Below are positions 25,529 to 62,830 of a DNA stretch of 64,000 nt, in pieces; the stretch's first letter is position 1, and the number at the start of each line of letters is the position of its first letter. Source of the DNA: Alphaproteobacteria bacterium (GTDB taxonomy: Bacteria; Pseudomonadota; Alphaproteobacteria; UBA828). Under the pieces are notes generated by a model. That model was not told the origin of the DNA and did no database searches. It was given only the letters and a program-made list of their open reading frames with translations. The DNA lies in contig OZ243972.1 in the NCBI GenBank assembly GCA_965214705.1, forward strand, positions 2,048,001 through 2,112,000, in the 5' to 3' direction. A program made the position numbers and the translations under genes.

Positions 25529-25602
25529 CGTGAGCCTCGGTTCAGTGTCGGGCGAGATATAGGTGCGCTCTGAGCAGGCGGCAAGCGGCGCAACCACTAT
25601 GA

Positions 25603-25797
25603 CGTCATGGCTGCACTTGTTGCGGCCACCCACGCGAGTACCGCGGAGAAAGATGCCCGGAATAAATCCGGGCATGACGAAGTGGGGGAGTGGGGGTGCG
25701 GCGGCGCGGCTTCTGTGCCGCGGTTGCGGCACTAGAAGCGTGCGCGACGTGGATGCCCGGAACACCCCCGGACTTGATCCGGGGGCCGGGCATGACG
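25603..25797. repeat. Cluster of REP/RIME-like palindromes
   Basis: Two GATGCCCGG...CCGGGCATGACGA units plus a degenerate inverted unit; same family as 12506-12591. Confidence 0.75.
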
Positions 25798-26010
25798 AGG
25801 TGGGGGAGTGACCGGGGCCGAGCGTAGAGGGCCCCGGACCATGGTGCAGTGTCTTGTATCATATGATAGGGGTACGCTGACGTACGATTAATCACTCTAA
25901 ATCAGTGAATTGTCGTATTCTCAGCGCGATGAGCTTAGTCTAGAATACGCGCCTGTACGCTTCCTTCAGGTACCTATTTGGTTCCCCAAACTGCCTCTTG
26001 GAAAAAGGTT

Positions 26011-27757: not shown

Positions 27758-27763
27758 GCGCCG

Positions 27764-28642: not shown

Positions 28643-28880
28643 TATCGATCTCCCTGGATCGCGACGGCGCGCCGCCGGACCGATCCGGCGACGGTCCGTC
28701 GCAGGGGTCGATGCTAACCACTGGTGATCGGGAGGCTGCTGGGGATCCGCCACCCGACGGGCGGAGCGCCACTGACGCAACCGGGAAGCGAACGCACAGA
28801 ACAAACGGCACCCGCGACGCCTCGGAAATGAATGAACTCTACGCCGCTAACTCCGCGTAGCGGCTTCGTTCAAACGCGCC

Positions 28881-34073: not shown

Positions 34074-35037
34074 ATCAGATCAGAGACTTGCAGGGAGACC
34101 AGTTCCGACCGGCGGAGCATCGCGTCGTAGGCCACGGCGAGTAGCGCGCAGTTTCGATCGTCGATCGTACGGTCGCCCGCGGCCTCCATCAGGCGCTGGT
34201 GCAGCAGCCAGGTCAGTCCCGTCGCCTGGTCCTGGCGGCGCCCCTTGCGCCGGTACATCCGCTTGAGCGCGAGCCGCACGAGCGGGCTCTTCACCGTCTT
34301 CTCAAGCCCCAGGGCCCGGTGGGCGATGGCGATGCTGGTGACATAACGCCGCACCGAGGCCGGTGCCCGGACCTCGCCCATGGCATCGACAAAGGCCGCG
34401 ACTGTCTCCGGCGCCGCCGGCAACGCCCTTTCCCCGCGTTCGTCACACCACCTGGCATAGATGGCGAGATCGCCGCTCTCGTAGGCGTCGACGAGAACGT
34501 CCTGCGCCTGTCCGCTGCCCGCCTCCGAGATGGCGATGGCGACCTTGAGAGGTATCTCTCCGGCTTCCACCGCAACCAGGAGTCGTTCCTCGCCGGCCTC
34601 CATGAGACGGCGGAGCTTGCCGACGTATTCGGCCGAATAGCCGATCTTGGTGGCGATCTTGCTGTTCGAGTAGCCGCGTCCGGCGAGATCGCCGATTGCC
34701 TTGAACAGATCCCCCGGACAAGGCTTGGTCCGTGCGGTGTTCTCGACAAGGCTCGAGAGCAGGATGTCCTCTTCTGACAGATCGGTGACGATCGCCGGGA
34801 TCTCCGTCTGCCCGAGCGCGAGGAAGGCTTCCATCCGGCCCTGGCCGTAAACCAGGTTGTAGGCGACTTCACCGTCGGCGCCGCGGGTCCGGCTCACCTT
34901 GATGGGCTGCTTGAGGCCGACCTTGTCGATGCTGTCGACGATCTCCGCGAATTTTCCGGCGTCCCGGAAGCGGGGATTGAGCACGACGATGCGCTCGATG
35001 GGGATTGTCTCGATCACGATATCGGTGTCGGTATTGT

Positions 35038-36615: not shown

Positions 36616-37193
36616 TGGGACCTCATCTTCGGTGTCGCCCCGCCCGAAGGCGCGGCGGCGTCCCTTGTTGCGGCAGCGGCGGCATGGTGCTTGCGGGCCG
36701 CCGATTCACGCCCGCACTCGTTGGCCATGTGGCGTTTCAGAGGCTTGGAGATGCCGGATAAGGGGGTCTCGTCTTCGTCGAATCCCTCGGCGCAATAGTG
36801 CACGTCGATACGGGCTCGGCGGCAGGCAAACTCAAGGCAGGCGGCCTGGTCGGGAGTGTGGAAGCGGCCCCAGCGGCTCGGATCGAGGAGCAGAACAGCG
36901 TCGAAATCGCCTGCGCCAATTTCGAGGTCGCGCAACATCTGCTGAAGAGCGGAGCGGCCGTCCGTCGTCAGGCCGCTCCCGCACTCGTCGCAATAGATCC
37001 GAATGAGCTCCATGTTGCGGTCGCGCGCGAACCGGACGATGGCTTCGAGCTGCTCGCGTAGCGTGTCTCCTTCGAGCTGCGTCGCCGAGCGGAGATAGCC
37101 CGCGACGGGCCGTTTCGAGGCAAGTCGTCCCGGCCGCGTGTCGGTTCTCAGGTTTCGATCGAAGGCCACCGAGATCTTCCCCTTCTTGCGCAT
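36612..37193 (-). CDS. Resolvase-domain paralogue lacking the canonical catalytic serine position
   Basis: GYLRSAT aligns with AYVRMST; DPSRWGRF and LEFACRRARIDVHYC closely parallel the downstream recombinase; ATGA overlap. Confidence 0.8.
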   Translation of the reverse strand: MRKKGKISVAFDRNLRTDTRPGRLASKRPVAGYLRSATQLEGDTLREQLEAIVRFARDRNMELIRIYCDECGSGLTTDGRSALQQMLRDLEIGAGDFDAVLLLDPSRWGRFHTPDQAACLEFACRRARIDVHYCAEGFDEDETPLSGISKPLKRHMANECGRESAARKHHAAAAATRDAAAPSGGATPKMRSQ

Positions 37194-37301
37194 GGTTTGC
37201 CGTGCCGAAGCGGCGGTTCCGCCATGCTGTGCAAACCGGGGGAGAGTTCCGGAGGGCGTGGCGAGAGTCCACAACCCAAAAGTAACCTTTCAAATCCCGA
37301 G

Positions 37302-37324: not shown

Positions 37325-39478
37325 CCCAAGTTGGCACTTTTTCCGGTTGCTCAATGCCGGTCTGCCCATATTTTGCGGACCGAAGTACCACATATTGGGG
37401 TAGCTCCGAGATGATGCCACTATATGTGTAATTGAGGCGCTGGAAGCGCGTTGTAGTGCCAGGATTTGTTAGGTATTGACGATTTTCCCTTGACCCCAGA
37501 CCCCAAGCCGACAAATCTTGGCCCCTCGCAACAATCTCGCGACGGGCGACATGTTCATCAGGGCAACCAAGACCCACACCACCGACGGCAAGCCCGTCCG
37601 AAGCCATCGCCTCGTGCTCTCCCAGCGCATCGGCGACAAGGTCAGGCAGCGCACGCTCCTCAACCTCGGCACCGACTATCCGGTGCCGAAGGAGAAATGG
37701 CGCGAAGTGGCCGAACTCGCCGAGGCGCTGCTGCACGGCCGCCCGCCGCTGCTCCAAGCCGTCCCGGACGTGCAGGCCGCAGCCGAGGACATCGTCGCCA
37801 AGCTCAGGGCCAGGGGGTTCCGTGCCGAGGCGATGCAGGAAGAGGCGCGCAAGCCCGAGATCGCCACCGTCGACCTCGATACCCTGGAGCATGAGAACCC
37901 GCGCACCGTCGGCTGCGAGCGCCTGTGCCTCAAGGCCCTCGACGACCTTGGCTTCGCCGAAATCCTCCACGGCCTCGACATCAAGGGCCGCGACGGACGC
38001 ATCGCCAGCGCGCTGATCGTCGCCAGGATGGTCCATCCCGCCAGCGAGCGTGATACCAGCCGCTGGCTCCGCCACGACAGCGCGGCCGCCGAGCTCCTGG
38101 GCCTGGAGGGCGACCGCAAGGCGCTGCGGCGCAAGACGCTCTACCGCATCGGCGACCTGCTCTGGCGCCACCGGGCCGCCATCCAGAGGGAACTGTTCAA
38201 CCGTGAGCGCGCGCTGCTCGACCTGCCCGAGACGATCGCCTTCTACGATCTCACCAACGTCCACTACCACGGCCACACCGACGGCGAGCTTCCCAGGTTC
38301 GGGCGCTCCAAGCAGAAGCGCGACGACTGTCCCCTCATCACGCTGGCGCTCGACGGTGCGGGCTTCCCGCGCAGTTGCGAGATCCTGCCCGGCAACGTGA
38401 GCGAGCCGGGCACGCTGCACGAGGCGCTGGCCCGGCTCGAGGCGGTATGCGGCGGCACGGCGGCGAAGCCCACGGTGGTCATGGACGCGGGCATCGCCAC
38501 CGAGGAGAACATCGTCTGGCTGGGCGAGCAGGGCTACGACTGGATCGCGGTCAGCCGCGGTGCCAGGCCTGCGCCGCCCGAGGGCGGACCCGAGGCCCTG
38601 CTGATCACCAGCGCGCGCCACGAGGTGCGGGCCTGGCGGCTTGCCAGCGAGGACGGCGAGGCGCGGCTCTACGTCGTCAGCGAGGGCAAGAAGAAGGCCG
38701 AGAACGCGATCATCGGCCTGAGGCGGAACCGCTTCGAGGCGGCGCTGCAAAGGCTCCACGGCGGCCTTGCGGTCAAGGGCCGCCTCAAGCGCTACGACAA
38801 GGTGCTGGAGAGCATAGGCCGCCTCAAGCAGCGCTTCTCCGCCGTCGCCAGGCACTACGAGATCACGGTCGAGAAGGCGGACACCGGCCCCAATGCCACC
38901 GCCGTGCGCTTCAAGCGCAGGCCGCGATACGACGAGGCCGATGAGGGCGCGGGCGCCTATGTGCTGCGCACCAGCCACGTCGACTGGGATATCGAGACGG
39001 TCCTGCGGACGTACTGGCGGATCACGGATATCGAGGCGACATTCCGAAGCCTGAAATCCGAACTCGGCCTTCGCCCGATCTGGCACCAGCTCGACCGGCG
39101 CATCGCGGCCCACCTGCTGATCGCCGTGCTGGCCTACCACGCCGTGCATCTGATCCGTTCCCGGCTGGCCGCGCGGGACATCCACAAGTGCTGGGCATCG
39201 ATCCGCGAGAGCATGCGGACCTGGGTGCGGATCACCACGCGCCTGCGCCAGACCGACGGCACCTTGATCGTCAATCGACAGGACACGCGCCCGGCCGCTG
39301 AGGTTGCCGCAATCTCCTCGGCGGCGGGCGTGGAACCCGCCATCCACCGCACGAGGACCCGCCTGCCGAACTGACAGAATCCAACAAAATGTAGTGCCAT
39401 GTTGGAACCGGCCGAGAGAAATATCGCGTTACATCAACACGATAAAGGACATGGGTAGGACAAAAGTGCCAACTTGGG
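37325..39478 (+). mobile_element. IS1634 family element type B, copy 2 (2154 bp)
   Basis: Same IRs; 4-bp duplication TTGA; near-identical to copy 1. Confidence 0.94.
37551..39374 (+). CDS. IS1634 family DDE transposase (type B)
   Basis: Protein differs from copy 1 at one visible residue (FRVE vs FRAE). Confidence 0.93.
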   Translation: MFIRATKTHTTDGKPVRSHRLVLSQRIGDKVRQRTLLNLGTDYPVPKEKWREVAELAEALLHGRPPLLQAVPDVQAAAEDIVAKLRARGFRAEAMQEEARKPEIATVDLDTLEHENPRTVGCERLCLKALDDLGFAEILHGLDIKGRDGRIASALIVARMVHPASERDTSRWLRHDSAAAELLGLEGDRKALRRKTLYRIGDLLWRHRAAIQRELFNRERALLDLPETIAFYDLTNVHYHGHTDGELPRFGRSKQKRDDCPLITLALDGAGFPRSCEILPGNVSEPGTLHEALARLEAVCGGTAAKPTVVMDAGIATEENIVWLGEQGYDWIAVSRGARPAPPEGGPEALLITSARHEVRAWRLASEDGEARLYVVSEGKKKAENAIIGLRRNRFEAALQRLHGGLAVKGRLKRYDKVLESIGRLKQRFSAVARHYEITVEKADTGPNATAVRFKRRPRYDEADEGAGAYVLRTSHVDWDIETVLRTYWRITDIEATFRSLKSELGLRPIWHQLDRRIAAHLLIAVLAYHAVHLIRSRLAARDIHKCWASIRESMRTWVRITTRLRQTDGTLIVNRQDTRPAAEVAAISSAAGVEPAIHRTRTRLPN

Positions 39479-40091: not shown

Positions 40092-40510
40092 CGGCATCGC
40101 GGTGCCAGAGCGAATATGTGCGTGAACTATGGTGCATCGATCTGGATAAGACCCCGCGATACACCTAGATTGTTGCGGAGCGGCGGTTCGACCGGTTGGT
40201 TATGGGTCGCTGGGGGGGATCACAGCCGGTGTAGAGCGCGGCCCACCCACTGAGCTGTCGGTTGAACGTGGGGACCGCCAGGAGGGTGTCGGAGAGCGCG
40301 TCAGCCCTTGGCGATCTTCTCTTCGGTGGCGTTCCTGGCGAGTCGCCCTCGCCCTTTTGGGCCGAGGACGAGGCGCGGGCGCAACTGTTGCCTCACCCCG
40401 GCTGTGGATTTGATGCCGGGAGCCGTTCGCTGAACATCGCCGCCGCACTCATCCTACCAGCGGCCTGCGGCGGGCGTGAGCGGCAGCCCAAGGAAGGCAG
40501 GTCGTTGGGA

Positions 40511-41392
40511 ATGCGGGGAGACAGTTCAGGATCGGCGCTAGGCGCCGAGGTCGTGGCGACGGTCAAATGGTTCAATCCGGTGAAGGGATACGGCTTCCTG
40601 ACGTCGGCGGACGGCTCTCGCGATCTCTTCTGCCACGTGTCGGCGGTAGCCCGAGCGGGGTGGGACAGTCTGCCTGAGGGCGCAACCGTCACGTGCGAAG
40701 TCGAGCACGGCCCTCGGGGCCCGCAGGTCTGGCAGATCCATTCCGTCGATGCCTCGACCGCGTCCACGGGCGCGGCGAGAAGCGGAGGGTCGCGGCGCGG
40801 AGAGTACGGACATATGCATGGTGAGCAGGGTCCGGCTTACGGCCGCCGCGTTGTGGCCATGGTCAAGTGGTTCAATTCGGCAAAGGGTTTCGGGTTTCTG
40901 GTTCCCGACGACGGCTCGCCCGATGTGTTCTGCCATGCCACGGCTGTCAGGGAAGCCGGTTACGACACGCTGCTGGAGGGCGCGACCGTGACCTGCGAGG
41001 TGGCGGAGGGCCAGCGCGGTCCGGCGGTGTCGTCCATCGTCGCCGTCGATTTCTCGACCGCCACGGCCGATGGCGGAGGCCGTGACGAGCGCTGGCTTGA
41101 GCGTCGGGACGGCCGGTGGGGTCACGGCGAGGCGGTCGGGCCGGTCGAGGAGCGTTTCGGCCTTGTCAAGTTCTACAGCTCCGCCAAGGGCTACGGATTC
41201 GTGGTCCCGGACGACGGCGGCCCGGACGTGTTCCTGCACGGTAGTGTTCTCAACCGCGCAGGCCTCGGCGGCCTGGGGACGGGTCAGCGCGTGCGCGTCG
41301 TGGTGGAGCAGGGAGCTCGCGGTCTTCAGGCGACCGAGATAATGCTCTTATCCCATCTTTGCCATTTTGGCGCGCGCCTGCGACCTAAGTAG
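40511..41392 (+). CDS. Protein with three tandem cold-shock domains (C-terminus extended into IS1634)
   Basis: VKWFNPVKGYGF/DLFCH, VKWFNSAKGFGF/DVFCH and VKFYSSAKGYGF/DVFLH; original stop TTA-TGA split by the IS. Confidence 0.9.
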   Translation: MRGDSSGSALGAEVVATVKWFNPVKGYGFLTSADGSRDLFCHVSAVARAGWDSLPEGATVTCEVEHGPRGPQVWQIHSVDASTASTGAARSGGSRRGEYGHMHGEQGPAYGRRVVAMVKWFNSAKGFGFLVPDDGSPDVFCHATAVREAGYDTLLEGATVTCEVAEGQRGPAVSSIVAVDFSTATADGGGRDERWLERRDGRWGHGEAVGPVEERFGLVKFYSSAKGYGFVVPDDGGPDVFLHGSVLNRAGLGGLGTGQRVRVVVEQGARGLQATEIMLLSHLCHFGARLRPK

Positions 41393-47969: not shown

Positions 47970-50900
47970 TTAACTCCTGCCAACCCGCTGGTCTGCTTTT
48001 CACAACGACACTAGCCACAAGAAATTCTCCTGGCCCGGAGCCGCCAGACCTCAACCACATCTCAAACAATGGGGTCATCCTTGGAGAGGCAATATCCCTC
48101 TCGTGTTCTGCAACTACGGTTGCGGGGATTGAATCGACAATACTGTTCCATAACTCCTCTCCCTCCAACTTTTCGAACCCAGCTCCCAGGCCAAATTTAA
48201 TGTGGTCAAACACAGCAAAACGCTCTTCCGCCATTATTGGGCTCAGAATAAACAACACCTGCATCTCTTTGCTCCAAGCGCGTACGACTTCGTGCAGCAG
48301 CTCCCCCTTTATCTCAGAACTTACGTAGTCGCTGTTTCTCAAGGCGCGAGCGGCCGCTTTCAGGACCTGCATACACTCAAACAAACTGGAATCCCTCACA
48401 AACGCTCGAATATTCTGGTTGTAAGGCACACTGCGGTCATACCGGCCGTCGGCTATCTGATCCTTCAATGCCACAGGCAGAGTAGACCGGGCCGCTTCCT
48501 CTCTTAGGTGTTTCTTTAACCTTCCTATTGCCTGCTGGTTGGGACTCCACTTCGCAGCTGAATATGGATCAAAATCGCCATCCATCCCCGTTCTGCGCTC
48601 GAAGCCGTCGTTTACGTCACGCAAATCAGCCGTCAATATTCTCAATAGCTCTTCCCGCCGTCGATCGACACCAGAATAGAACTCAATAACTTCTGGAAAA
48701 CTCATATAAAAAGAGTCCTTCAGAACAAACTCGCAAAATGCGGCACCATGATGCATCCTGTGCGCTCCGAAAAATATATCCAATGAACATATCTGAAATG
48801 ATACAGCACTCCGCCTCGACAATAATATTTTCACAACTCATAACCTCGAAAAGCTTCGCACAGTCAACATCAATCGACATATTGGTGCAAAACTTTGCAG
48901 ACGAAACGATAAATTCCTTTTTTGTGAAGCCATTTCGTCTTTGACGGATAAGGTCTTCGCAAAATGCCCCTATGACAGCCAGCGCATCCTTCATATCTGG
49001 AAAATTACCATAGTCGGGAACCTTCCTATAGGAGAAAAAAATCAAAAACAAAAATCTCTCGAACATGTCCGCTCGGTTAACCGGACTGTAATCTATCCCA
49101 CTAGCGTAAATTGCCAGCAGCGTCAGGCATACCAAAGGTGTTCTGTGAACATTTAGATTCTCGATGTCATCAGCTAACCTTTGCAAGGCCGCGTTCTCGT
49201 CAAGATCATAACCAGCGGAAATGAACTTTTGCACTATTTCGCGCATCTGACCTCGTTCGAGTGACCACAAGAAAAATACGTCTAACTCAGCATCGAGCTG
49301 CCCCTCATACTGCCACACGGCAACTTCACTATCGCTCAATCCCAGCAGAATCGTGAGGGGAACCTGAGGATGAGTCTTCTTGATGTTGTTAATCTTCCGA
49401 TAGTTAATCGGGCCGCTTTCATCCAGTATAATAGCACTAAGGTCAGCTGCATTCAATCCAAGCTCGTCAATCCGATCCCGAATGTAGCTCTGAATTCCTG
49501 TCTCATGATTTTGGAGCTCGCTCGCATTTATACATAGAGCGAACTTCCGAGGCTTTGACTTCCAGGCCGAAAGAGCCAGGTATCGCCCCAGACTACTCAA
49601 GCCAAATTGACGGGGCGCAATTACAAAGCAGTCGCGAAAAGGCTCGCGCAACGAGTCGGACGTTAAAACTATTGCGGAGTTGTCATCCGAACTAGATTCA
49701 GTTTGATCGGCAATATTGGCACCACCCATACAGCAGGAAAGGACGCGTAACACTTCAAACAAGCGTTCACATTGTTCTGTAGTAAGGCCAATATTCTACC
49801 ATACGCATGACAGTCGGGCTCAACGGTCGATTCGAAGTCTCCGATTTGGCCGTGGCGCAAAGTGACTATGCCGGTATCGTTCCTGGAAAACATTGTTCCG
49901 GCAACAAATCTGTCGTGAGCCCATTGTCGGTAGTGAATGTTCAGGGAAGTCAGTTCGTCATCAATTACAAGAATAGAATATCCTAGAAGATCAGACTTCT
50001 GCGAAAACAATTGTGGCGCCGAGCAGTGTACGTAAGAATCTGTGCCGTTGGTGATGTGAAAGGATTCTTGGTTGTGGACGTGGCCGTTAAGACCAAATCA
50101 AAATAACGTAAGCACAAGGATCTAATTTCCTCTTCGGCCCAATCTGTTAACCATTCGAAGGGGTGATGCATAATAAGGATCTTATATCCATGGCCAGATT
50201 CTTCTAGCCATGCGTGCAACCTTCTCGTCTCAACCGGAAGTTCTTTATCATCACTTATAGTGTTTTGGTTTTCATCGCGCAGGCCTCCGAAGGAGTATAG
50301 GGCGGTGTCTAAGCAGTAGATGCCAATACTGTTCGGAAGATCAAATCCACGTCCACAGAACGATGCAGCTGTGAGCGGCCAATCGGAAATGGACGCCTGC
50401 CACTCCAAGAAGGGCAGGAATTTCGATTTTAAAAGATGTTCCTGAGAGCCATATACTGTATCGTTGAATTGTGTTTCGGTGGTCTCTCTCTCCTGTAGTC
50501 CCTTTAGGAGAGGTAAATTCGTCTTTGTGAATTCTCTGTCAATGTCGTGATTTCCAGGGACAATAATCGACCGTTGGCGGGTTATGCCAAGTGCATTTAG
50601 TCTTTCTCCAAATATGCTAGTAAATACTGGTAGGCTTCTCGTTCAGTACCCTCCTGAAGTATATCTCCAGTGAATGCTACGAATACTTCGTCCATTTCGC
50701 TGATTTGTCGCTGCAAGTCAGCGAAAAACTCACGTAAAACGACACCTTGTTCTTCGTGCCAGTTCTTGCGCAAGTGCAAATCAGAGATATGTAGAATTGT
50801 GGTTGGCATTTTGACTTAGACTCATTCAAGACTTGGGGAAAGAATTGTATCGACATTGGCGGTCGTTATCAAGAGGGACATTTCTTGAGGTGGATTTCGG

Positions 50901-51985
50901 CCGGTGGGGGGCGGGCGATGGCATGCGAAGTGGCAGTTCAATTGAATTTTGGTTGGGCTGTCAGGATTGAATGTCTGATGGTGGTGAGGGCAAGATTGAG
51001 GGGCGTATTGTTAGTTGGGCGGTTCGAGATGGGTACCTTGGTCTGGCGCATGGCTGACAGGACGGGAACTGAGATGTCGGCAGTTACTAGGGTTTTGTGA
51101 GGGGATGCGAACCGGCGCCGGTGGTCGCTCAATCGTTGGCGGGGGTCAGTCATCCGGATGCCGCAAAGCCTCCGGACGCTCAAGCGGTGCGCCCGAATAT
51201 GCCTAGCCCGGCGCTCGCCTAGATTCAATAACTATATGAATTGACATACTTTTTCCGGACAGCGCGACTTTCTATCCCTAAATCAATCCCACACCAAGTA
51301 TGATACTTGTGCGTCCTCCCGTAGACCTCCGGATACCTCAATCATCGTGGCTGATGTCACCATGGTAATCCCTCGGTGGGTCGGGATGACACGGGCGGAC
51401 AGCCATGTTGGACGTCCGTTGGGCCAACAGAATGATCCCTGTACACGATGGTTTCAAGGTTGCAACCCTCCGGCGGGACCGTTCCACGGTTCGGCCGAAG
51501 CCTTACCATTGATGTCAGGCGTTCCGTCGCGCCGTCGAGGCCAGGTAGGGTCTACCGATGGAGGAGCGTTCCCAGGTTCCTCCGTGGCGGTCGGACCGGG
51601 TCGCAGACGATGACCGCATAGAGGAGGGTCGCCGAGCGCGACCTGATGTCGCCGGGCGTGGCGCGCTGCGAGCCCTGTTCGCGCAGGCACCGCGAGAGCT
51701 CGGGAGCGTTTCGCGGCATCCCGCTCTGGGACCCGAACTGTACGGTGATCGGGATCGCCACCGGCCGGGAGCATGGCCCCTATGACAGCGAGGCCGATGT
51801 CGCGCTCCGCCTGGCCTTCGTCAAGCTCTCGCGAAGTGATGTCAAGGTCGCTGCCATCGGACTGACTGACGTCGGCGATCGCCGCCAGCCGGGCCCTTCA
51901 GACGTTCCTGCGAACGTCGTGGACCGTGCTCACGAAACCGCCGCGATTCCAAGCCCACGGATATAGCGACACCGATTGATCAACC

Positions 51986-52414
51986 TCACACAACGCGGGT
52001 CTCGAGCACGAGGTCCCGGCCGAGCGCCCGCACGGCCTCGTGGATGCGGTTCGCGGAACTGCGGTGACGCGGATCGAGCATCCTGCGCACGGCCTTTTCG
52101 TCGATGCCAAGGCGGGCGGCCAGCGCAACACGGGTCGTTCCGGTTTCGCGAAGCGCCACTGCCAGCGCTGCCTTCACCGCGGTGTCGGCGGGCACAGAAA
52201 CAAGATACTCGCCCGATCGGCACGCGCTGGGTTCCGGGATCGGTTCGGGGTCGTCGATGCGGCCGGCGATGGCCTCCTCGAGCGCGTCGGCGGCCTCGGT
52301 CAGTGCTTCGGTTTCGTCGGCGCCGGACGTCAGACACTCCGGCAAATCGCGGAACGAGACGACAATCTCGTCGACTCCGGTGCGCTGCAATTGCGCGGGA
52401 TAGATGAAGCGCAT
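51986..52414 (-). CDS. hicB: HicB-family antitoxin with C-terminal HTH (no hicA adjacent)
   Basis: YPA..VVSFRDLPECLTSG..EAL..A.DAL; LAARLGIDEKAVRRMLDP. Confidence 0.85.
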   Translation of the reverse strand: MRFIYPAQLQRTGVDEIVVSFRDLPECLTSGADETEALTEAADALEEAIAGRIDDPEPIPEPSACRSGEYLVSVPADTAVKAALAVALRETGTTRVALAARLGIDEKAVRRMLDPRHRSSANRIHEAVRALGRDLVLETRVV

Positions 52415-54644: not shown

Positions 54645-56797
54645 CCCAGGTTGGCACTTTTGTCCTACCCATGTCCTTTATCATGTTGATGTAACGCGAT
54701 ATTTCTCTCGGCCGATTCCAACATGGCACTACATTTTGTTGGATTCTGTCAGTTCGGCAGGCGGGTCCTCGTGCGGTGGATGGCGGGTTCCACGCCCGCC
54801 GCCGAGGAGATTGCGGCAACCTCAGCGGCCGGGCGCGTGTCCTGTCGATTGACGATCAAGGTGCCGTCGGTCTGGCGCAGGCGCGTGGTGATCCGCACCC
54901 AGGTCCGCATGCTCTCGCGGATCGATGCCCAGCACTTGTGGATGTCCCGCGCGGCCAGCCGGGAACGGATCAGATGCACGGCGTGGTAGGCCAGCACGGC
55001 GATCAGCAGGTGGGCCGCGATGCGCCGGTCGAGCTGGTGCCAGATCGGGCGAAGGCCGAGTTCGGATTTCAGGCTTCGGAATGTCGCCTCGATATCCGTG
55101 ATCCGCCAGTACGTCCGCAGGACCGTCTCGATATCCCAGTCGACGTGGCTGGTGCGCAGCACATAGGCGCCCGCGCCCTCATCGGCCTCGTCGTATCGCG
55201 GCCTGCGCTTGAAGCGCACGGCGGTGGCATTGGGGCCGGTGTCCGCCTTCTCGACCGTGATCTCGTAGTGCCTGGCGACGGCGGAGAAGCGCTGCTTGAG
55301 GCGGCCTATGCTCTCCAGCACCTTGTCGTAGCGCTTGAGGCGGCCCTTGACCGCAAGGCCGCCGTGGAGCCTTTGCAGCGCCGCCTCGAAGCGGTTCCGC
55401 CTCAGGCCGATGATCGCGTTCTCGGCCTTCTCTTGCCCTCGCTGACGACGTAGAGCCGCGCCTCGCCGTCCTCGCTGGCAAGCCGCCAGGCCCGCACCTC
55501 GTGGCGCGCGCTGGTGATCAGCAGGGCCTCGGGTCCGCCCTCGGGCGGCGCAGGCCTGGCACCGCGGCTGACCGCGATCCAGTCGTAGCCCTGCTCGCCC
55601 AGCCAGACGATGTTCTCCTCGGTGGCGATGCCCGCGTCCATGACCACCGTGGGCTTCGCCGCCGTGCCGCCGCATACCGCCTCGAGCCGGGCCAGCGCCT
55701 CGTGCAGCGTGCCCGGCTCGCTCACGTTGCCGGGCAGGATCTCGCAACTGCGCGGGAAGCCCGCACCGTCGAGCGCCAGCGTGATGAGGGGACAGTCGTC
55801 GCGCTTCTGCTTGGAGCGCCCGAACCTGGGAAGCTCGCCGTCGGTGTGGCCGTGGTAGTGGACGTTGGTGAGATCGTAGAAGGCGATCGTCTCGGGCAGG
55901 TCGAGCAGCGCGCGCTCACGGTTGAACAGTTCCCTCTGGATGGCGGCCCGGTGGCGCCAGAGCAGGTCGCCGATGCGGTAGAGCGTCTTGCGCCGCAGCG
56001 CCTTGCGGTCGCCCTCCAGGCCCAGGAGCTCGGCGGCCGCGCTGTCGTGGCGGAGCCAGCGGCTGGTATCACGCTCGCTGGCGGGATGGACCATCCTGGC
56101 GACGATCAGCGCGCTGGCGATGCGTCCGTCGCGGCCCTTGATGTCGAGGCCGTGGAGGATTTCGGCGAAGCCAAGGTCGTCGAGGGCCTTGAGGCACAGG
56201 CGCTCGCAGCCGACGGTGCGCGGGTTCTCATGCTCCAGGGTATCGAGGTCGACGGTGGCGATCTCGGGCTTGCGCGCCTCTTCCTGCATCGCCTCGGCAC
56301 GGAACCCCCTGGCCCTGAGCTTGGCGACGATGTCCTCGGCTGCGGCCTGCACGTCCGGGACGGCTTGGAGCAGCGGCGGGCGGCCGTGCAGCAGCGCCTC
56401 GGCGAGTTCGGCCACTTCGCGCCATTTCTCCTTCGGCACCGGATAGTCGGTGCCGAGGTTGAGGAGCGTGCGCTGCCTGACCTTGTCGCCGATGCGCTGG
56501 GAGAGCACGAGGCGATGGCTTCGGACGGGCTTGCCGTCGGTGGTGTGGGTCTTGGTTGCCCTGATGAACATGTCGCCCGTCGCGAGATTGTTGCGAGGGG
56601 CCAAGATTTGTCGGCTTGGGGTCTGGGGTCAAGGGAAAATCGTCAATACCTAACAAATCCTGGCACTACAACGCGCTTCCAGCGCCTCAATTACACATAT
56701 AGTGGCATCATCTCGGAGCTACCCCAATATGTGGTACTTCGGTCCGCAAAATATGGGCAGACCGGCATTGAGCAACCGGAAAAAGTGCCAACTTGGG
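54645..56797 (-). mobile_element. IS1634 family element type B, copy 3 (2153 bp)
   Basis: Same IRs (one substitution); 4-bp duplication TCAA. Confidence 0.93.
54749..56571 (-). pseudogene. IS1634 type B transposase with a 1-bp deletion near 55431
   Basis: CCTTCTCTTGCC versus CCTTCTTCTTGCC in the intact copies; ORF split in two. Confidence 0.88.
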
Positions 56798-56828
56798 TCA
56801 ATATGTTCCTGATGCGGAGGTCACGGAT

Positions 56829-57764
56829 ATGGCGTTCAAAGTGGCATCGCGGGTGCGCGGGATGAGCGACGAGGCCTTTCGCAAGGCCTTCGGCAGAGAG
56901 GAGCAGTGCCTCGCGGCGCTGGTCCGGCTGCGCTGGCCCGACGGCTTCGTCTGTCCCTCCTGCGGCCATCGCGGGCATTGCCTGCTGGCGGGCCGGGGGC
57001 TCTACCAGTGCAACCGCTGCAAGAGGCAGACCTCGCCCACGGCGGGCACCATCTTCCATTCGACCAAGCTGCCGCTGACACTGTGGTTCGCGGCCATCCA
57101 CCTGATCGTGACGGCGAAGAACGGCGTCTCGTCGGTGGAACTCGGCCGCCGGCTCGGGGTCAAGCAGCCGACGGCCTGGGCCATGAAGCACAAGATCATG
57201 GCAGTGATGGCGCGGCGCGAGGGGGAGACGCGGCTCTCGGGCCGGGTGGAGATGGACGACGCCTATCTCGGCGGCAGGCGTTCCGGCGGCAAGCGGGGCC
57301 GGGGTGCGGCCGGCAAGACGCCCTTCGTCGCCGCAGTCTCGACCGGCCCCGAGGGGCGCCCGCGCAAGCTGAAGCTGGTCCCGGTCAAAGGCTTCCGCAA
57401 GCGAGAGATCGCGCGCGGCGCCCCGCGCTGGCTGGCTCCCGGATCGGAGGTCGTGACGGACGGCCTCGGCTGCTGGAGCGCGCTCGACGAGGGTGCTTGC
57501 AGCCATCGGGCGATCCGCACCGGCGCAGGCCCCAAGGCGGCCCGCGTGGCCTCGTTCAAATGGGTCAACACGACGCTCGGCAACATCAAGAGCGCGGTCA
57601 CCGGAACCTACCGCAAGCTCGGCCCCGACCATGCCGAGCGCTACCTCGCCAGCTTCGCCTGGCGCTACAACCGGCGCTACCACCTCAAGACCATGATCCC
57701 GCGCTTCGTCCACAGCGCCGCACGAACCAACCCGATGCCTTATCGCATCCTCGTCGCAGGATGA
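56829..57764 (+). CDS. IS1595 family transposase
   Basis: RWPDGFVCPSC Zn ribbon, TAGTIFHSTKLPL, VEMDDAY, GKRGRG, VTDG and WRYNRR. Confidence 0.94.
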   Translation: MAFKVASRVRGMSDEAFRKAFGREEQCLAALVRLRWPDGFVCPSCGHRGHCLLAGRGLYQCNRCKRQTSPTAGTIFHSTKLPLTLWFAAIHLIVTAKNGVSSVELGRRLGVKQPTAWAMKHKIMAVMARREGETRLSGRVEMDDAYLGGRRSGGKRGRGAAGKTPFVAAVSTGPEGRPRKLKLVPVKGFRKREIARGAPRWLAPGSEVVTDGLGCWSALDEGACSHRAIRTGAGPKAARVASFKWVNTTLGNIKSAVTGTYRKLGPDHAERYLASFAWRYNRRYHLKTMIPRFVHSAARTNPMPYRILVAG

Positions 57765-58497
57765 GAATCAGGGATAAGCAGGTTTTCTTTTGCGGCGCAG
57801 GACTGGTAGCGGTGTCGGTCCAGGTCGTACTTGAAGCGAGTGCCACGACCGATGGGTAAACCTCCCGCAGCAGACGCTCCGATCGCCTCGAATTTCAGAG
57901 TAGGCAAATCGCCGGGGCATCTCTCTGACCCAGCGACGCCCGATGAGAAGGTGCGGCGTCTGGTCAGCGCGTTTCTCCCTGAACTTCCCCAATGTTGGGG
58001 ACGCGCGAAACGCACAAGCGCTTTATCGTTCCCACCGGTATCGGCGCAGCCGGGAACAGACCCAGGAAGAGCTGCCCTGGGTCCGGCTATCGACACGGAA
58101 CGCGTCTTGCGTTTGGGCGAGACGCATTCGGAACACCAGGAGTGCCAATTTCCGCAACCGCCCGAACCCGATCCCGCACAAACTCCCGCACGCCATGCAG
58201 GCTGAACGGGCTCGATGAGCGAAACGCCATCGGCGAATGTACCGAGCCGGGACTGTATCGGGCGTCTCCGCGATACAGGCCCGGCCGCCCATCGTCGATG
58301 TGTGCATGTACCGCGCTCGCCGTCCGCCCGATATTCGGCACTCGTCGAGGAGAGCGACCGATGACGACCGTGACACTTCAGACTGCGCCGCAATGCCATG
58401 CCCGCCGGGCACTGTCCAGCAGGCGGTCCGGCTCGTTCGCCCGCTGCCGGTGCGCGTCGGCACGCTCGATCCTCTGTCACACCTCGGATCGACGGCG

Positions 58498-58746
58498 GTG
58501 ACGAAGAGGGTCACCAGAACCGAGACCCGGGCCGCAACGGGCGCGCTCCTTCCCGAATTCCTCCGATCCCACGAGGCGGCGGCCATCCTGCGATTGAGCG
58601 TGCGAACCCTCGACACCTACCGGTCGAAGGGTGGAGGGCCCGCCTACTTCGTGTTTGGCAATCATGTCGCGTACGCCCGCACCGACCTCGCGAAATGGGC
58701 TGCCGCGCGGCGGAGCTGGACCACCGCTCATGCGGACACTCTCTGA
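58498..58746 (+). CDS. Excisionase-like HTH (HTH_17/AlpA-type) protein
   Basis: FLRSHEAAAILRLSVRTLDTYRSKGGGPAY; start uncertain. Confidence 0.75.
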   Translation: MTKRVTRTETRAATGALLPEFLRSHEAAAILRLSVRTLDTYRSKGGGPAYFVFGNHVAYARTDLAKWAAARRSWTTAHADTL

Positions 58747-58997
58747 ACGGGCCGAAGCTGTAGCGGGAACGGATCCGCCAGGGAGGTGGAGGAGGTGGAC
58801 GGGTTCGCGGTGATATCGAGCGTCCTCACATCCAGGCTTCGCCTTCCCGGGCGGTCATCGCGCCGGTCGCCGCGGGCGCTGTCCCAAACTGCGGGTGGAG
58901 CGGTGGCAGGCAAGCGCGCCGGTCGCCACGGACTCCGATGGCTCCGTACCTCCGGTTGTATCGGCGAGCGCGCCAGCTTGACCGATCGGCGAAGACG

Positions 58998-59681
58998 ATG
59001 CCCGTGACGAAGCTCGACATCGAGCTCCAGCGCGTCATCGCGGCCTGGCTCGAACGCTCCGGCATGAGCGCCGAGATGCTCGGCGAGCTCGCGCTTGAAG
59101 ACGCCGGTTTCGTGGCGGAGCTGAACCGTGGCCGCTCGCCGCAGCTCGACGCGGTCGATCGGCTCCTCGGCTTCATGGACATCGCACCCATCGGTCCGCG
59201 GTTCCGCCAGGAGATCGAGGCGTTCCTCATCGTCACCCACACCAGGCCGACCGTGCTCGGCGCCAACGCCGTCGGGAAATCCTCTTTCGTGTGGGAGCTG
59301 AGAAGCGGGACGTCGCCGACGCTCAAGAGCACCTACCAGGTGAGGACGTGGATGCACGGCTTTGCCAATGAACTCGACCGCACCGCCATCGCGTGGCTGA
59401 TCGCGAACGATGCACCCGCCCCGCCCTATGGGCTCTCCGCGGTATTCGCGCCCTGGACCGATGACGACCGTGGCTTGGGGACGCTCGACGAGAGGACCTT
59501 TCTCACCGTGCGCGAGGCGGCGACGCTCCTCGGCCTCACACCCCGAACGCTCGACGGCTACCGGGTCACCGGCGATGGACCGGCGTTTCACAGGTTCGGG
59601 TCCCGGGTGTTGTACGCGCGCTTCGACGTCGAGGCGTGGGTGAAGGCGAAGCGCCGACCAAGAGTTTCGAGCGTCGCGTGA
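58998..59681 (+). CDS. Tandem Cro-like HTH x2 + excisionase-like HTH protein, paralogue 1
   Basis: Two IxAxL..GMS..G..A.xD...V..L..G.SP.L repeats then FLTVREAATLLGLTPRTLDGYR..GDGPAF. Confidence 0.8.
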   Translation: MPVTKLDIELQRVIAAWLERSGMSAEMLGELALEDAGFVAELNRGRSPQLDAVDRLLGFMDIAPIGPRFRQEIEAFLIVTHTRPTVLGANAVGKSSFVWELRSGTSPTLKSTYQVRTWMHGFANELDRTAIAWLIANDAPAPPYGLSAVFAPWTDDDRGLGTLDERTFLTVREAATLLGLTPRTLDGYRVTGDGPAFHRFGSRVLYARFDVEAWVKAKRRPRVSSVA

Positions 59682-59815
59682 TGGCTCCCGGCTCCAACCA
59701 GGACCGCGTCGCAAGCGCACGGGCGGGCGCGAAGCCCTTGGAGCGGTTCCACGCGATCGCATTCCCCCATTGGCCACCGACGTGAGCGGCTGAATTCCCG
59801 CAGGAGTGTGCCCCC

Positions 59816-60520
59816 ATGACGACGCTCGACGATTCCATCCGCCAGGCCATCGAGGCGTATCTCGCGCGCACTCGTCTGAGCGAGCGGAAACTGGGCGCGT
59901 TCGCAGTCGGCGACCCTGCACTCATCCCGCGAGTCAGGGCGGGCGGCTCGATGCGGCTCGGCACCGCCGACCAGCTGCTCACCTACATGAAGGAGGAGCC
60001 CATCGGTCCGGCTTTCCGCAGCGAGGTCGAGGCGTTCCTGTCCGAGACCGGCATCGGGGAGCGCACGTTCGGGTCCAAGGCCGCCGGAGACCCCTCGTTC
60101 GTGACGAGGCTCCGGAGCGGGGCGTCGTCACGGCTGTCCACCGTCCAGCGGGTGCAGGGGTGGATGCGCGCCCACAAGGATGAGCTCATCCGCGCCGCAG
60201 CCGCGCGGAAGCAGGCCGAGCTCAGGGAGACATCGGATGCCCCCTCTTCGGGCTCGGTCACGAAGGACACGCTCGACGCCTCGGCGCCGCAGCTACAGTC
60301 CGGCGACGAGAGCGCACTCGAGAGAACAATTCCCGCCGAGGCCGATTCGAAGATGTTCTTCACGACGAGCGAGGCCGCGGCCCTTCTCACACTCTCGCCC
60401 CGCACACTCGACCGCTATCGTGAAACGGGTAAAGGACCTCCGTTCTTCCGGATGGGGGCTGCCATCCGGTACCTGCGATCCGATCTCATGGAATGGGCAT
60501 GGGCGCGGCGCCAGGATTGA
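59816..60520 (+). CDS. Tandem Cro-like HTH x2 + excisionase-like HTH protein, paralogue 2
   Basis: IEAYLARTRLSERKLGAFAVGDP / VEAFLSETGIGERTFGSKAAGDP / EAAALLTLSPRTLDRYRETGKGPPF. Confidence 0.82.
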   Translation: MTTLDDSIRQAIEAYLARTRLSERKLGAFAVGDPALIPRVRAGGSMRLGTADQLLTYMKEEPIGPAFRSEVEAFLSETGIGERTFGSKAAGDPSFVTRLRSGASSRLSTVQRVQGWMRAHKDELIRAAAARKQAELRETSDAPSSGSVTKDTLDASAPQLQSGDESALERTIPAEADSKMFFTTSEAAALLTLSPRTLDRYRETGKGPPFFRMGAAIRYLRSDLMEWAWARRQD

Positions 60521-60614
60521 GTTCGCGACCGGGTCTGATGAGGTCATGGTCATCGACCGTCCCGAAGCGAGGTGGGCCGCGCGACAAGCTGAATCGCAAC
60601 CGGAGTATGCCTTC

Positions 60615-61229
60615 ATGACGACGCTCGACGACTCCATCCGGGGAACCATCGAGGCGTATCTCGCGCGCACGAACATGAGCGCAAGGAAATTTGGCGTGCT
60701 GGCGCTCGGCGACCCCGGCTTCGTCTCGAGTCTCAAGTCGGGACGGTCGCTGAGACTCGACACCGCCGACCGGGTGCTCCAGTTCATGGACGAAGCGCCC
60801 ATCGGCCCCAGGTTCCGCGACGAGGTCGAGGCGTTTCTGTCCCGCACGGCCATGAAGCCCTACAAGCTCGACGAGAAGGCCTTGGGTGACTCCTCGTTCG
60901 TCCAGAAGCTCATGAGCGGGGCATCGCCCCAGCTCCGCACCGTCGAGCGGCTGCGGAGCTGGATGCACGACACCCATCCCACCTCAGGCTCGGGACCACT
61001 CGTCGAAGGACGCCCTCGCGGGAGCAGACCCTCTCCGCAGGGCGCTGCTCCGACGTTCCTCTCGACGCGCAAGGCCGCGGCCCTGCTCGCGCTCTCGCCC
61101 CGAACGCTCGATCGCTTCCGAGAGATCGGTACGGGGCCCCCGTACTTCCGGTTGGGGCAACGCATCATGTACTCGCGCGAAGACCTCCTCGAATGGGCGT
61201 GGTCGAAGCGCGAGAGCCCAGAATCCTGA
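60615..61229 (+). CDS. Tandem Cro-like HTH x2 + excisionase-like HTH protein, paralogue 3
   Basis: Same MTTLDDSIR start and GGAG RBS context as paralogue 2; same three-domain layout. Confidence 0.82.
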   Translation: MTTLDDSIRGTIEAYLARTNMSARKFGVLALGDPGFVSSLKSGRSLRLDTADRVLQFMDEAPIGPRFRDEVEAFLSRTAMKPYKLDEKALGDSSFVQKLMSGASPQLRTVERLRSWMHDTHPTSGSGPLVEGRPRGSRPSPQGAAPTFLSTRKAAALLALSPRTLDRFREIGTGPPYFRLGQRIMYSREDLLEWAWSKRESPES

Positions 61230-61510
61230 ACAACGACACGTCGTGTCCCCCCGGCCCTGCGTTTGGTCACCCTGCAACCGGCGTCGCGCGCGCCGGCCTC
61301 GTCCGCCACCGCTCCAGAGCCACCTGGTGATTGCGGCGCTTCACGGAATCTGCCGAGGATCCGCACATGCAGCGCCTGCCCGGCGCCGAGAATGTCGGAG
61401 CCGGACGCCGCGTGGGCCGGAGGGTCGCCGACGGCTGCGAGCGCGGATTGAAAAAAGCCGCACTCGGTATTACAAAGGGATCATGAAGACGGGCGCTCGC
61501 GAGGGCCAGA

Positions 61511-61894
61511 TTGCAGACGTTCAAGACCAAGGCGTTCGCCCGGTTCGCCGACCGCGAGGGACTGGAGGATGCGGCCCTGTGCGAGGCCGTCCGGCGCGCC
61601 CGCGATGGGCTGATCGACGCCGACCTCGGCGGCGGCGTCATCAAGCAGCGCATTGCCCGCAAGGGCGGCGGCCGGTCCGGCGGGTTCCGCACGATCGTGC
61701 TGTTCCGCCGGGGCGCGTTGGCGTTCTTCGTCTACGGGTTTGCCAAGAGCGACCGGGAGAACCTTCGGCGCAAGGAGCTCTCGGGGCTGCGTTCGCTGGC
61801 GGAAGAGTATCTGGCGCTGGACGCGGCGGGTCTCGCGGCCGCGCAGGCGGTTGGCGCGATAATCGAGGTGGAATGCGATGACCAAGCAGTATGA
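61511..61894 (+). CDS. higB: RelE/HigB family toxin
   Basis: FKTKAFARFA, DADLGGGVIKQRIAR, GRSGGFRTI and YGFAKS. Confidence 0.88.
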   Translation: MQTFKTKAFARFADREGLEDAALCEAVRRARDGLIDADLGGGVIKQRIARKGGGRSGGFRTIVLFRRGALAFFVYGFAKSDRENLRRKELSGLRSLAEEYLALDAAGLAAAQAVGAIIEVECDDQAV

Positions 61895-62195
61895 GAGCGA
61901 GGTGCTGGCGTCGGTGCACGAAGCCGCGCTCGGTCTGGCCGAGGCGGGCCTCATGTCGAAGCGGACCATGCGCAAGTTCGACGAGATGTGTCTCACGCCG
62001 GTCAGGGAGATGACGCCGGAGGACATCCGCGCGCTTCGGCTGCGCGAGCATGCGAGCCAGGCGGTGTTCGCGCGCTACCTCAACGTGACGACGGGTCTGG
62101 TGAGCCAGTGGGAGCGCGGCGAGAAGCGCCCGCGGGGCGCCTCCCTGAAGCTCCTGACGCTGGTGGCGAAGAACGGTCTCGGGGCGGTCGCCTGA
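61878..62195 (+). CDS. higA: HigA-type XRE HTH antitoxin
   Basis: SQAVFARYLNV..VSQWERGEKRPRG; overlaps the toxin. Confidence 0.88.
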   Translation: MTKQYESEVLASVHEAALGLAEAGLMSKRTMRKFDEMCLTPVREMTPEDIRALRLREHASQAVFARYLNVTTGLVSQWERGEKRPRGASLKLLTLVAKNGLGAVA

Positions 62196-62323
62196 CGGAT
62201 ACCCGCGGCCCGCCTTTTGGTGCCATTCATCGCCAGCGCCTGCACGTCGTTGGCGGGACAAAAGGCCTGGTTTGGGGGTCCTGCCATGGCGCGCCATGGC
62301 AGGATTTTCGTGCGCATGTTTTG

Positions 62324-62350
62324 GTGATCGTGCTCGACACAAACGTCATT
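62324..62350 (+). pseudogene. Possible PIN/VapC toxin N-terminal remnant
   Basis: GTG-start MIVLDTNVI only; downstream sequence unrelated. Confidence 0.35.
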
Positions 62351-62830
62351 TGGCGCGGTCATGGCAGACCCGGAAACGGGTATTCGGGCGCAGGTCGCGT
62401 ACTGAAGAAACGTGGTTCGGGAGCGCTGCCATCGGTGGGTCGTTGTCACCGATGACGCATGCAACGACGGCGCCACCGGCAAGACCGGGCGGCCGGCTCG
62501 TTAGCCGGCATCCGGCAACGAGTCATCGCCGCCAGGCGGTTTGATGATCGCTGGCGCCGAACCTGGACTTGGCAGAGACCACCCCTGCGGTTTCGAGCGC
62601 GGGGCGCGGGGCCTCTTCGGAGGTCCTTGCTTGATTCGTCCAGGCTGAAGCACACATCCGGTGGTCCGGCGGACTCGGGACGCCGTTGCCATCCGCCCGA
62701 GGTACGGTTCCGAACATGGCTCCATCAGGAGCCCCGTTGCCTTGACGGCTCCCGTCATGGTCTACGTCGTCAACGCGACGATTGACGCTTGGCAGGCCGA
62801 GAACGACGTCCTTGCAGAGAGCGAGGGGAC

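Follow-up and report, generated by a model that had tools for sequence, protein, structure and literature searches.

How integrative and conjugative elements (ICEs) as well as islands are regulated in Alphaproteobacteria has been worked out in depth for only a handful of systems, for example RdfS/FseA/QseM of ICEMlSym. In temperate elements, the small single-domain proteins P2 Cox and 186 Apl unite a Cro-like switch function and an excisionase function in one protein. Island regulators of the AlpA/HTH_17 type (e.g. that of CP4-57) are small MerR-like winged helix-turn-helix (HTH) proteins encoded beside P4-type Arm-DNA-bind_3 integrases. Among conjugation proteins, F TraY carries its DNA-binding motif twice within one chain, as an internal duplication, and TrwA is encoded at the front of trwABC; both are encoded by the first gene of a transfer or DNA-transfer-replication (Dtr) operon, upstream of traA-traL-traE or trwB-trwC. 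The present analysis concerns four genes, g0 to g3, in a stretch of 64,000 nucleotides (the window; positions 2,048,001 to 2,112,000 of contig OZ243972.1, assembly GCA_965214705.1) from the genome of an alphaproteobacterium of the UBA828 lineage. Genes g1 to g3 were shown to be three paralogues of old origin, specific to their positions in the array, in a family not described before; each is composed of two predicted XRE-like repeats, a linker and an RdfS-like winged HTH, while g0 is the winged-HTH part alone. The four genes form a conserved cassette for predicted DNA-binding proteins of mobile elements, and the chance appears somewhat better than even that these regulate excision and transcription of integrative elements.

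The closest described protein is RdfS of ICEMlSymR7A (PDB 8dgl), which comes from an alphaproteobacterial ICE and gave the best match to both the C-terminal domain of the family and g0. RdfS binds both attP and the promoter of its own gene, and excision depends on it (PMC11963761). It is a single-domain protein with a 91-residue chain in 8dgl, whereas g1 to g3 bear about 120 extra residues with two XRE-like domains. RdfS also works with the adjacent IntS and oligomerises via an extra helix, whereas no cognate integrase gene adjoins the array in the window. The AlpA-type regulators differ in being single-domain and single-copy, without XRE-like repeats or arrays. P2 Cox and 186 Apl share the functional logic proposed here, but in the present family the two proposed activities would reside on separate, fused domains.

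Domain architecture of g0 to g3

Four intact, co-oriented open reading frames (ORFs) were present on the forward strand, separated by spacers of 94-257 bp, and g1 to g3 were recognisable as paralogues at the nucleotide level (direct-repeat families D1-D3, 60-74% identity). The original prediction, made from the sequence alone, had described three genes with two repeats and an HTH each, preceded by a lone excisionase-like gene, and had counted ten DNA-binding domains in 2.7 kb. Both statements held. The Pfam model HTH_17 (PF12728, cut-off 27 bits) was passed by all four proteins (g0 34.8, g1 35.3, g2 45.0 and g3 38.8 bits), the domain being C-terminal in g1 to g3 and the sole domain of g0. Profiles of the two N-terminal units of about 58 aa, made from 56 family members, aligned with each other in hhalign with a probability of 99.4% (E 1.9e-21, 56 columns, 36% identity), which at the level of sequence identifies the units of g1 to g3 as true internal duplicates. 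Three times three domains plus one gives ten predicted DNA-binding domains within 2.73 kb.

The C-terminal domain also matched phrog_66 ('excisionase and transcriptional regulator') of the PHROGs collection. A structural model of g2 was compared with 48,161 PDB representatives by VIA-align, and the best match of its C-terminal domain was RdfS 8dgl (Z 8.9, 32% identity), with the GIsul2 excisionase and Pukovnik Xis among the other matches. RdfS was also the top match of g2 in Foldseek (E 1.8e-3, 34-35% identity), where no match reached E<=1e-3. With phmmer, g0 aligned with RdfS over 61 residues (g0 11-71 on RdfS 9-69; E 2.9e-6). Similarity to 8dgl was found in sequence for g0 and in structure for the C-terminus of g2. 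These comparisons showed the winged HTH of g1 to g3 and g0 to be homologous to RdfS, the nearest known protein, and the excisionase-like character that had been proposed for this domain was borne out.

The N-terminal 120 or so residues of g1 to g3 were covered by no model in scans of Pfam and NCBIfam. Single repeats matched phrog_7669, a PHROGs family of unknown function, with an E of about 1e-6 (g3 repeat 1, E 1.8e-6). In an AlphaFold2 model of g2, built from the alignment of 56 sequences (A1) and with a mean pLDDT of 82.5, each repeat consisted of four helices (4-18, 23-31, 36-41 and 48-57 in repeat 1; 64-78, 82-90, 95-100 and 107-140 in repeat 2). A disordered linker (142-176, pLDDT<50) and the winged HTH (181-230) followed. 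In VIA-align, repeat 1 superposed on ClgR, C.AhdI, lambda cI-NTD, 5d50 (Rep, the repressor from a temperate phage of Salmonella) and P22 c2 with Z 7.1-7.8 and an rmsd of 2.1-2.6 Å over about 60 residues, the highest scores being 7.8, 7.7 and 7.7 to 3f51, 1y7y and 1rio. Repeat 2 superposed on the CUT domains of SATB1 and HNF-6 and on RsaL with Z 6.5-7.2 (7.2 to 2o49, 6.7 to 5j2y). The superpositions spanned 57-63 residues, and a repeat profile matched the XRE antitoxin HipB in register over the whole domain (E 0.021). Each repeat is predicted to have a four-helix lambda-repressor/XRE-like (Cro/cI-type) HTH fold.

The resemblance to Cro-like proteins of prophages that had been claimed for the repeats stood with regard to the fold, since the models resemble Cro/cI-type HTH domains (Z 7.2-7.8). 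It did not stand with regard to phages: the genomic context is that of ICEs and integrative islands, and the phage collection searched contained no family match at E<=1e-3. The putative likeness to lambda cI-NTD, P22 c2, C.AhdI, ClgR and HipB extends over the whole domain, and the family genes of ICEs, described below, are placed like cro. Proteins of the Cro/cI type are homodimers, whereas in the present family a single chain bears both domains together with a winged HTH and does not reach the Pfam model HTH_3. A prediction of a g2 homodimer (two copies, alignment A1) gave a score of 0.00 in two runs, which is no verdict and not evidence either way.

The motifs SMRLGT, SSRLST, SLRLDT and SPQLRT, which the original prediction had taken for recognition helices, were found to lie elsewhere. 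In the AlphaFold model they occupy the loop between helices 3 and 4 and the start of helix 4, and in the in-register alignment with HipB they correspond to 'ESVRLNT', past the HTH. The putative recognition helices of g2, as placed by the model, are DPALIPRVRAG and DPSFVTRLRSG, and the candidates for the whole family are the D-P-x-F/L-V/I-x-x-L segments preceding the SMRLGT-type motif.

The double-repeat profile also had single-repeat matches (E 1e-11 to 1e-15) in Alphaproteobacteria of other families, each lying within a longer open frame (500-935 aa; G126:C5:10007-10165, G291:C77:8491-8649, G058:C51:28054-28212 and G245:C1:166479-166652). From these sequences, the repeat may occur in other architectures as well.

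Conservation, clades and distribution of the family

Related loci are designated by L numbers; L015 lies in the source genome itself (G000), L036 in the congeneric genome G009, and L058 and L059 are metagenome contigs. The order g0-g1-g2-g3 was syntenic in L058/L059 (about 88% nucleotide identity) and in L036 (72-76%), and all 12 orthologous ORFs of the three syntenic cassettes were open and without stops. The ratio of nonsynonymous to synonymous substitutions (dN/dS) was determined by the Nei-Gojobori method (NG86), which is prone to overestimating it for genes rich in GC3 and is noisy for single domains. Against L058 it was 0.56 for g0, 0.53 for g1, 0.34 for g2 and 0.64 for g3 at a dS of about 0.2, and against L036 it was 0.52-0.58 at a dS of 0.40-0.52. 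Overall, dN/dS ranged from 0.34 to 0.64 at a dS of 0.18-0.52 (g0 0.56-0.57, g1 0.53-0.54) and was below 1 for every whole gene, which amounts to moderate purifying selection on the cassette.

The GTG start of g0 was kept in L058 and L036. For g1, ATG 58998 and ATG 58938 are other possible starts, but GTG 59004 is the most likely one, since all three loci have ATG or GTG as the third codon; ATG 58998 is disfavoured because the aligned codon is GCG in L058 and GTC in L036. The start context common to g2 and g3, CTGAAT..GGAGT.TG.C..C ATGACGACGCTCGACGA, had been pointed out before; it was present in the sequence, was kept in both syntenic loci, and reads as a Shine-Dalgarno sequence (GGAG) followed by the start codon. 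In both L058 and L036, the sequence upstream of g0 contains a counterpart of the conserved block listed in Table 1; the alignment shows long invariant runs, and blastn gave 82-84% identity. Between this block and g0 the window contains 514 extra bases (57979-58492) relative to L058, while in L058 the spacer from g2 to g3 is longer by about 370 bases. No Rfam match at E<=1 was obtained in 57500-62500, and the ORF overlapping the block (57831-58205) had no Pfam match.

IQ-TREE (LG+G4, quick search) was used to calculate a maximum likelihood tree of 46 full-length members, after the removal of seven out of 53 unique rows, six of them shorter than 200 aa or containing X and one a duplicate. The groups were set by gene order and not by sequence. 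The genes of ICEs (16 rows, SH-aLRT 91) were separated from the genes of arrays (30 rows, SH-aLRT 91) as sister groups. Within the arrays, each position was a clade of its own, with SH-aLRT values of 100 for position 1 (seven rows), 99 for position 2 and 99 for position 3, and positions 2 and 3 were sisters (98). As each position forms its own clade, the array is old and position-specific and not the product of a recent local duplication. At 29 sites, residues were at least 80% conserved within 24 g2-type and within 29 g3-type proteins yet differed between the two groups. These fixed differences were concentrated in helices 2 and 3 of repeat 1 (positions 23, 26, 31, 36-39 and 44), the pattern to be expected of paralogues that recognise different DNA.

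The search for the architecture and its gene neighbourhoods that had been proposed with the original prediction found sister genes in F-type ICEs, arrays on islands and a third, chromosomal clade. In F-type ICEs of the same genus as the source, the single-copy sister gene opens the transfer operon. In L015, a pilin-like gene of 145 aa, traL and traE and, further on, traC come after such a single-copy family gene, which is divergent from the gene of an S24 peptidase/HTH repressor. The family gene is followed by TraL..TrbI in L044, by TraE in L032, and in L045 by genes for a 151-aa protein, for a coupling protein of the TrwB type and for a TrwC relaxase. An adjacent divergent S24 repressor was found for ten of the 16 ICE-clade rows and for none of the 30 array-clade rows; as locus lengths differ, missing S24 neighbours are soft evidence. 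This arrangement in the F-type ICEs is that known from cI/cro switches, and the family protein takes the position of cro. Compared by hhalign with the HTH of the partner S24 repressor, repeat 1 reached a probability of 40.8% (E 2.8e-4) and repeat 2 one of 1.6%.

The divergent control regions of this type (7711-7803 of L015 and the equivalents in L029, L031, L032, L033, L053 and L016) were also compared. Six of the seven intergenic regions, which are about 90 bp long, shared TTGNNN-N16-18-TAYGTT ending 7 nt before the ATG. This spacing suggests a leaderless first gene, so that the family gene of the ICE type would be made from a leaderless transcript. A direct repeat GTTSY-N6-GTTC at -21 was seen in six of the seven promoters; it was found post hoc in related sequences, overlaps the -10 element and is a lead only.

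The source genome contains four ICE-type switch modules of two types. Three near-identical head modules of F-type ICEs were located at C1:1977084-1977683 (L005/L015), C3:236843-237442 (L006) and C1:3021440-3022039 (L008), with the order S24 repressor, family gene, pilin-like gene, traL, traE, traC; L006 and L008 have two tandem S24-like genes. The fourth, different module is at C3:369374 and is followed by a PilO-like gene.

Arrays of the island type comprise two or three paralogues, usually with a lone HTH_17 gene in front (L037, L038, L050 and L058). Their surroundings contain tyrosine integrases of the P4 type, large serine recombinases and numerous toxin-antitoxin or Abi genes. A tyrosine integrase was present within about 6 kb in six of ten array loci examined (L014, L037, L039, L040, L041 and L058), and in L058, the closest orthologous cassette, the integrase gene lies 296 bp from g3. 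Genes for tRNA were absent from the window and from eight of nine related loci, the exception being tRNA-Met beside the serine recombinase of L040.

The third clade was seen in four loci from metagenome-assembled genomes (MAGs), each time as a lone gene of the chromosome with dnaK-dnaJ on one side and housekeeping genes on the other. Its neighbours are dnaK, dnaJ and a MetE-like gene, followed by a FAD monooxygenase or a homocysteine methyltransferase gene. In L047, a DDE_3 transposase adjoins the family gene. The chromosomal copy may be domesticated or the scar of an island.

The family is large. A search with g2 gave 338 homologous proteins at E<=1e-3, and forms of 234 aa and 204 aa repeatedly shared contigs. 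With a profile of the double repeat (A2, built from 34 sequences), 1.84 billion cluster representatives were searched, and 3341 representatives were matched at E<=1e-3, 313 at E<=1e-10 and 92 at E<=1e-30, most of them 200-260 aa long. At E<=1e-10, a match was found in 16 of 20 congeneric genomes searched, in one of 16 genomes of other genera of the same family, and in 18 of 400 genomes of an even sample of the class (19 of 401 with G000 included); full-length double repeats were present in eight of those 18. The source genome (7.9 Mb) contains 21 matches to g2, among them a second array on contig 3, interrupted by an insertion sequence (IS), and the four ICE-type copies. A search of genome contigs for related loci with ORF translation P0003 gave no confirmed relative. 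A degenerate DNA pattern for the PIGPxFRxEVEAFL junction, used to gather related loci, gave 12 loci, and the related loci come from MAGs assigned to Defluviicoccus sp., Alphaproteobacteria bacterium, Rhodospirillaceae and, in one case, Vicinamibacteraceae. Sequenced plasmids had no family match by tblastn at E<=1e-6.

Family genes are at present annotated only as 'HTH_17' or 'helix-turn-helix domain-containing protein', and the ESM Atlas contained a single 'HTH_17 regulator' cluster (score 0.95). Full-text searches, supplements excluded, gave neither a paper nor a family model for a chain that joins two XRE-like domains to an RdfS-like one, for its location across from a CI-like repressor in F-type ICEs or for position-specific arrays. 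The passages covered of a preprint on a Sphingopyxis ICE mention only generic HTH, WYL and S24 regulators, and a paper on a Novosphingobium ICE contained none of the terms sought in it. HTH_17 recombination directionality factors (RDFs) and XRE repressors are known parts; for their fusion we found neither model nor paper. The objection named with the original prediction, that the architecture might already be a catalogued family, did not apply, HTH_17 being the only part with a model. The N-terminal double repeat merits a family model of its own.

Proposed function and competing explanations

The favoured reading, that the cassette encodes regulators of excision and transcription of integrative elements, can be put in terms of the domains. 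The two XRE-like domains of each chain would act as a built-in covalent pseudo-dimer that reads a bipartite operator, and the tethered RdfS-like domain would bind and bend DNA at recombination or promoter sites. In this way each protein would join Cro-like control with a recombination-directionality or architectural activity. On islands, the paralogues, having diverged at HTH positions, probably recognise different sites and, together with g0, probably control excision or expression of the island. The cassette of the window may have been parted from its integrase by IS traffic. The proposal of a single-chain Cro-like unit tethered to an RDF, made in the original prediction, fits the ICE sisters in the cro position opposite an S24 repressor, but no repressor or integrase gene stands beside the array itself.

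The module appears to be widespread, with a CI-like S24 repressor facing a triple-domain protein that is the first product of a transfer operon. If the fused protein couples the switch to excision, this would explain how derepression, excision and transfer of an ICE are coordinated by one polypeptide. The position-specific arrays on islands rich in integrases and toxin-antitoxin genes represent a natural experiment in the divergence of DNA specificity and are candidates for cross-talk between islands and ICEs.

Several results weigh against this reading. A divergent S24 repressor with a short shared region, as in a cI/cro switch module, was found for the ICE-clade sisters only and is lacking at the array of the window. 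Searches by tblastn with the L058 integrase, S24 repressors and XRE neighbours gave no integrase, repressor or conjugation gene adjacent to the array; the nearest integrase of the window, at 28881, is 28.5 kb away and 39% identical to the L058 integrase. A promoter scan of 57700-62300 found no sigma-70-like promoter, and two terminator-like sites were obtained in the same scan where 2.1 were expected. A repeat search of the intergenic regions gave no convincing operator-like repeats. The ICE promoter motif GTTCC-N6-GTTCC occurred three times in the window against 4.2 times expected, in no case near the array. With regard to the domains, the NCBIfam model TIGR01764 'excisionase' (cut-off 28.8 bits) was missed by g0 (17.6 bits), g1 (23.0 bits) and g2 (20.5 bits), and g3 had no match to it in the NCBIfam scan. 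Pfam HTH_3 (PF01381, cut-off 23 bits) was not reached by the repeats; a trace of 11.9 bits (E 0.23) was present in g1 only and none in g2 or g3. As the Z-scores of 7-8 lie within the range usual for small helical domains (Z below 8), the XRE assignment rests on several concordant weak lines and no single strong one. The constraint on the genes is merely moderate at the dN/dS values given above, and in single domains, where the ratio is noisy, it rose to 0.97 in g2 repeat 2 and 1.68 in the 27-codon linker of g3. Finally, the chromosomal clade indicates that not all members are bound to elements, since the 12 kb retrieved for each of its four loci contained neither an integrase gene nor a gene for conjugation.

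A doubtful alternative is that the family proteins are relaxosome accessory factors or activators of the transfer operon like F TraY and R388 TrwA, which would bind oriT-like DNA and recruit a relaxase; on this view, the arrays on islands would enable resident ICEs to mobilise islands that are not conjugative themselves. The genes of the ICE clade do sit at the head of the operon where such factors sit, before the pilin-like gene, traL and traE in L015, before the tra genes of L044 and before TrwB and TrwC in L045, and the genome contains at least four ICE-type copies as possible helpers. However, TraY and TrwA are plasmid-borne ribbon-helix-helix proteins without an adjacent CI-like repressor, and the family, with its XRE-like and winged HTH domains, does not belong to that class. 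The genes of the window have no tra neighbours, no oriT or relaxase was found near the array, and the divergent S24 repressor of the ICE sisters and the RdfS-like domain suit a role as switch protein or RDF better.

It is unlikely that the arrays are decoy or cross-talk sets which bind the operators of CI-type switches of resident or incoming ICEs or phages and so sense or block a helper. Such a role would agree with the sister-group relation of array clade and ICE clade, with the four switch modules of two types in the genome, with the clustering of paralogue-specific substitutions in the HTH of repeat 1 and with the position of arrays among toxin-antitoxin and Abi genes. Against it, no phage relatives were found and the ICE-type promoter or operator motif is absent near the array, although this absence is silent on binding in trans. 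Equally improbable is the more specific form of the idea, in which island arrays are specificity-diversified single-chain Cro-Xis hybrids by which a non-conjugative integrative island would read or tamper with the CI-type switches of several F-type ICEs residing in its genome. If it were true, every paralogue would be matched to a helper of its own, and the island would excise and hitch-hike on an induced ICE or block it; this would be satellite-helper regulation among conjugative elements, on an undescribed protein architecture.

A non-functional remnant of decayed or accreted elements, drifting neutrally and intact by chance, is very unlikely, for although the IS-riddled surroundings, the lack of a promoter-like site, the fairly high dN/dS and the decay of other arrays (position 2 cut to 149 aa in L035/L038, and in the source genome the IS-interrupted contig-3 array and a copy at C3:15277 with a TAG stop) would fit it, the orthologous ORFs have all stayed open at a dS of up to 0.52 with whole-gene dN/dS below 1, the position-specific clades are common to several genomes, and the spacers are short and the Shine-Dalgarno and start context conserved.

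Coordinates and surroundings of the array

The positions of the genes, their domains and the flanking features are given in Table 1.

Table 1. Features of the cassette and its flanks (window positions) and of the chromosomal clade (positions within each locus)
Feature	Position	Strand	Description
g0	58498..58746	+	Stand-alone RdfS-like winged HTH (HTH_17, E 1.9e-8), 82 aa, GTG start
g1	59004..59681	+	Position-1 paralogue: two XRE-like repeats, linker and HTH_17 (E 1.4e-8)
g1 HTH_17			Residues 168-218 of ORF translation P0002
g2	59816..60520	+	Position-2 paralogue, 234 aa; HTH_17 E 1.3e-11
g2 repeat 1	59816-59998		aa 1-61
g2 repeat 2	59999-60175		aa 62-120
g2 long helix and disordered linker			aa 121-177
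g2 HTH_17	60356-60511		aa 181-232
g3	60615..61229	+	Position-3 paralogue, 204 aa, short linker; HTH_17 E 1.1e-9
g3 HTH_17	61056-61208		aa 148-198
Conserved block of about 120 nt upstream of cassette	57860..57978	.	Candidate promoter/operator or att-related sequence
IS1595-family transposase, left flank	56793..57764	+	DDE_Tnp_IS1595 E 2.8e-32; Zn_ribbon_IS1595 E 7.4e-16
RelE-type toxin, right flank	61511..61894	+	PF06296 RelE E 8e-44
XRE antitoxin, right flank	61878..62195	+	HTH_3 E 3.4e-6; same 105-aa type near arrays in L036 and L040
Chromosomal-clade gene, L047	5818-6522		
Chromosomal-clade gene, L049	5818-6504		
Chromosomal-clade gene, L054	5818-6534		
Chromosomal-clade gene, L056	5535-6224		

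The region from about 21.5 kb to past the end of the window is riddled with IS. The description of a decaying island given in the original prediction was fair, because the region contains an IS91 with a frameshift, IS copies in duplicate and the gene of a truncated resolvase. The pair of IS91 (Y2_Tnp) and tyrosine recombinase occurs once in the window in frameshifted form (26315-28804) and three times intact just downstream (L013 1846-4134, 5673-7961 and 9399-11687). Two identical DDE_Tnp_1 ORFs of 618 aa lie 5.4 kb apart (32113-33969 and 37518-39374). This points to very active IS traffic. On the reverse strand between the identical IS copies (33866-37274), a ParB_N/RepB-like gene stands in a row with the gene of a large serine recombinase (525 aa) and a resolvase-domain ORF of 220 aa. 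An AlpA gene is located downstream of the window (L013:15927-16256).

Two segments of low GC content, 22000-26000 (0.53-0.59) and 48000-52000 (0.47-0.54), stand out against about 0.67 elsewhere. The former contains a 591-aa AAA_21/AAA_15 ATPase (23262-25037, reverse strand), and the ORFs of the latter had no Pfam match. An unusual ORF of 376 aa on the forward strand (40262-41392) contains three cold-shock domains (CSD, E 2.2e-51 over three stretches) together with a match to OB_RNB.

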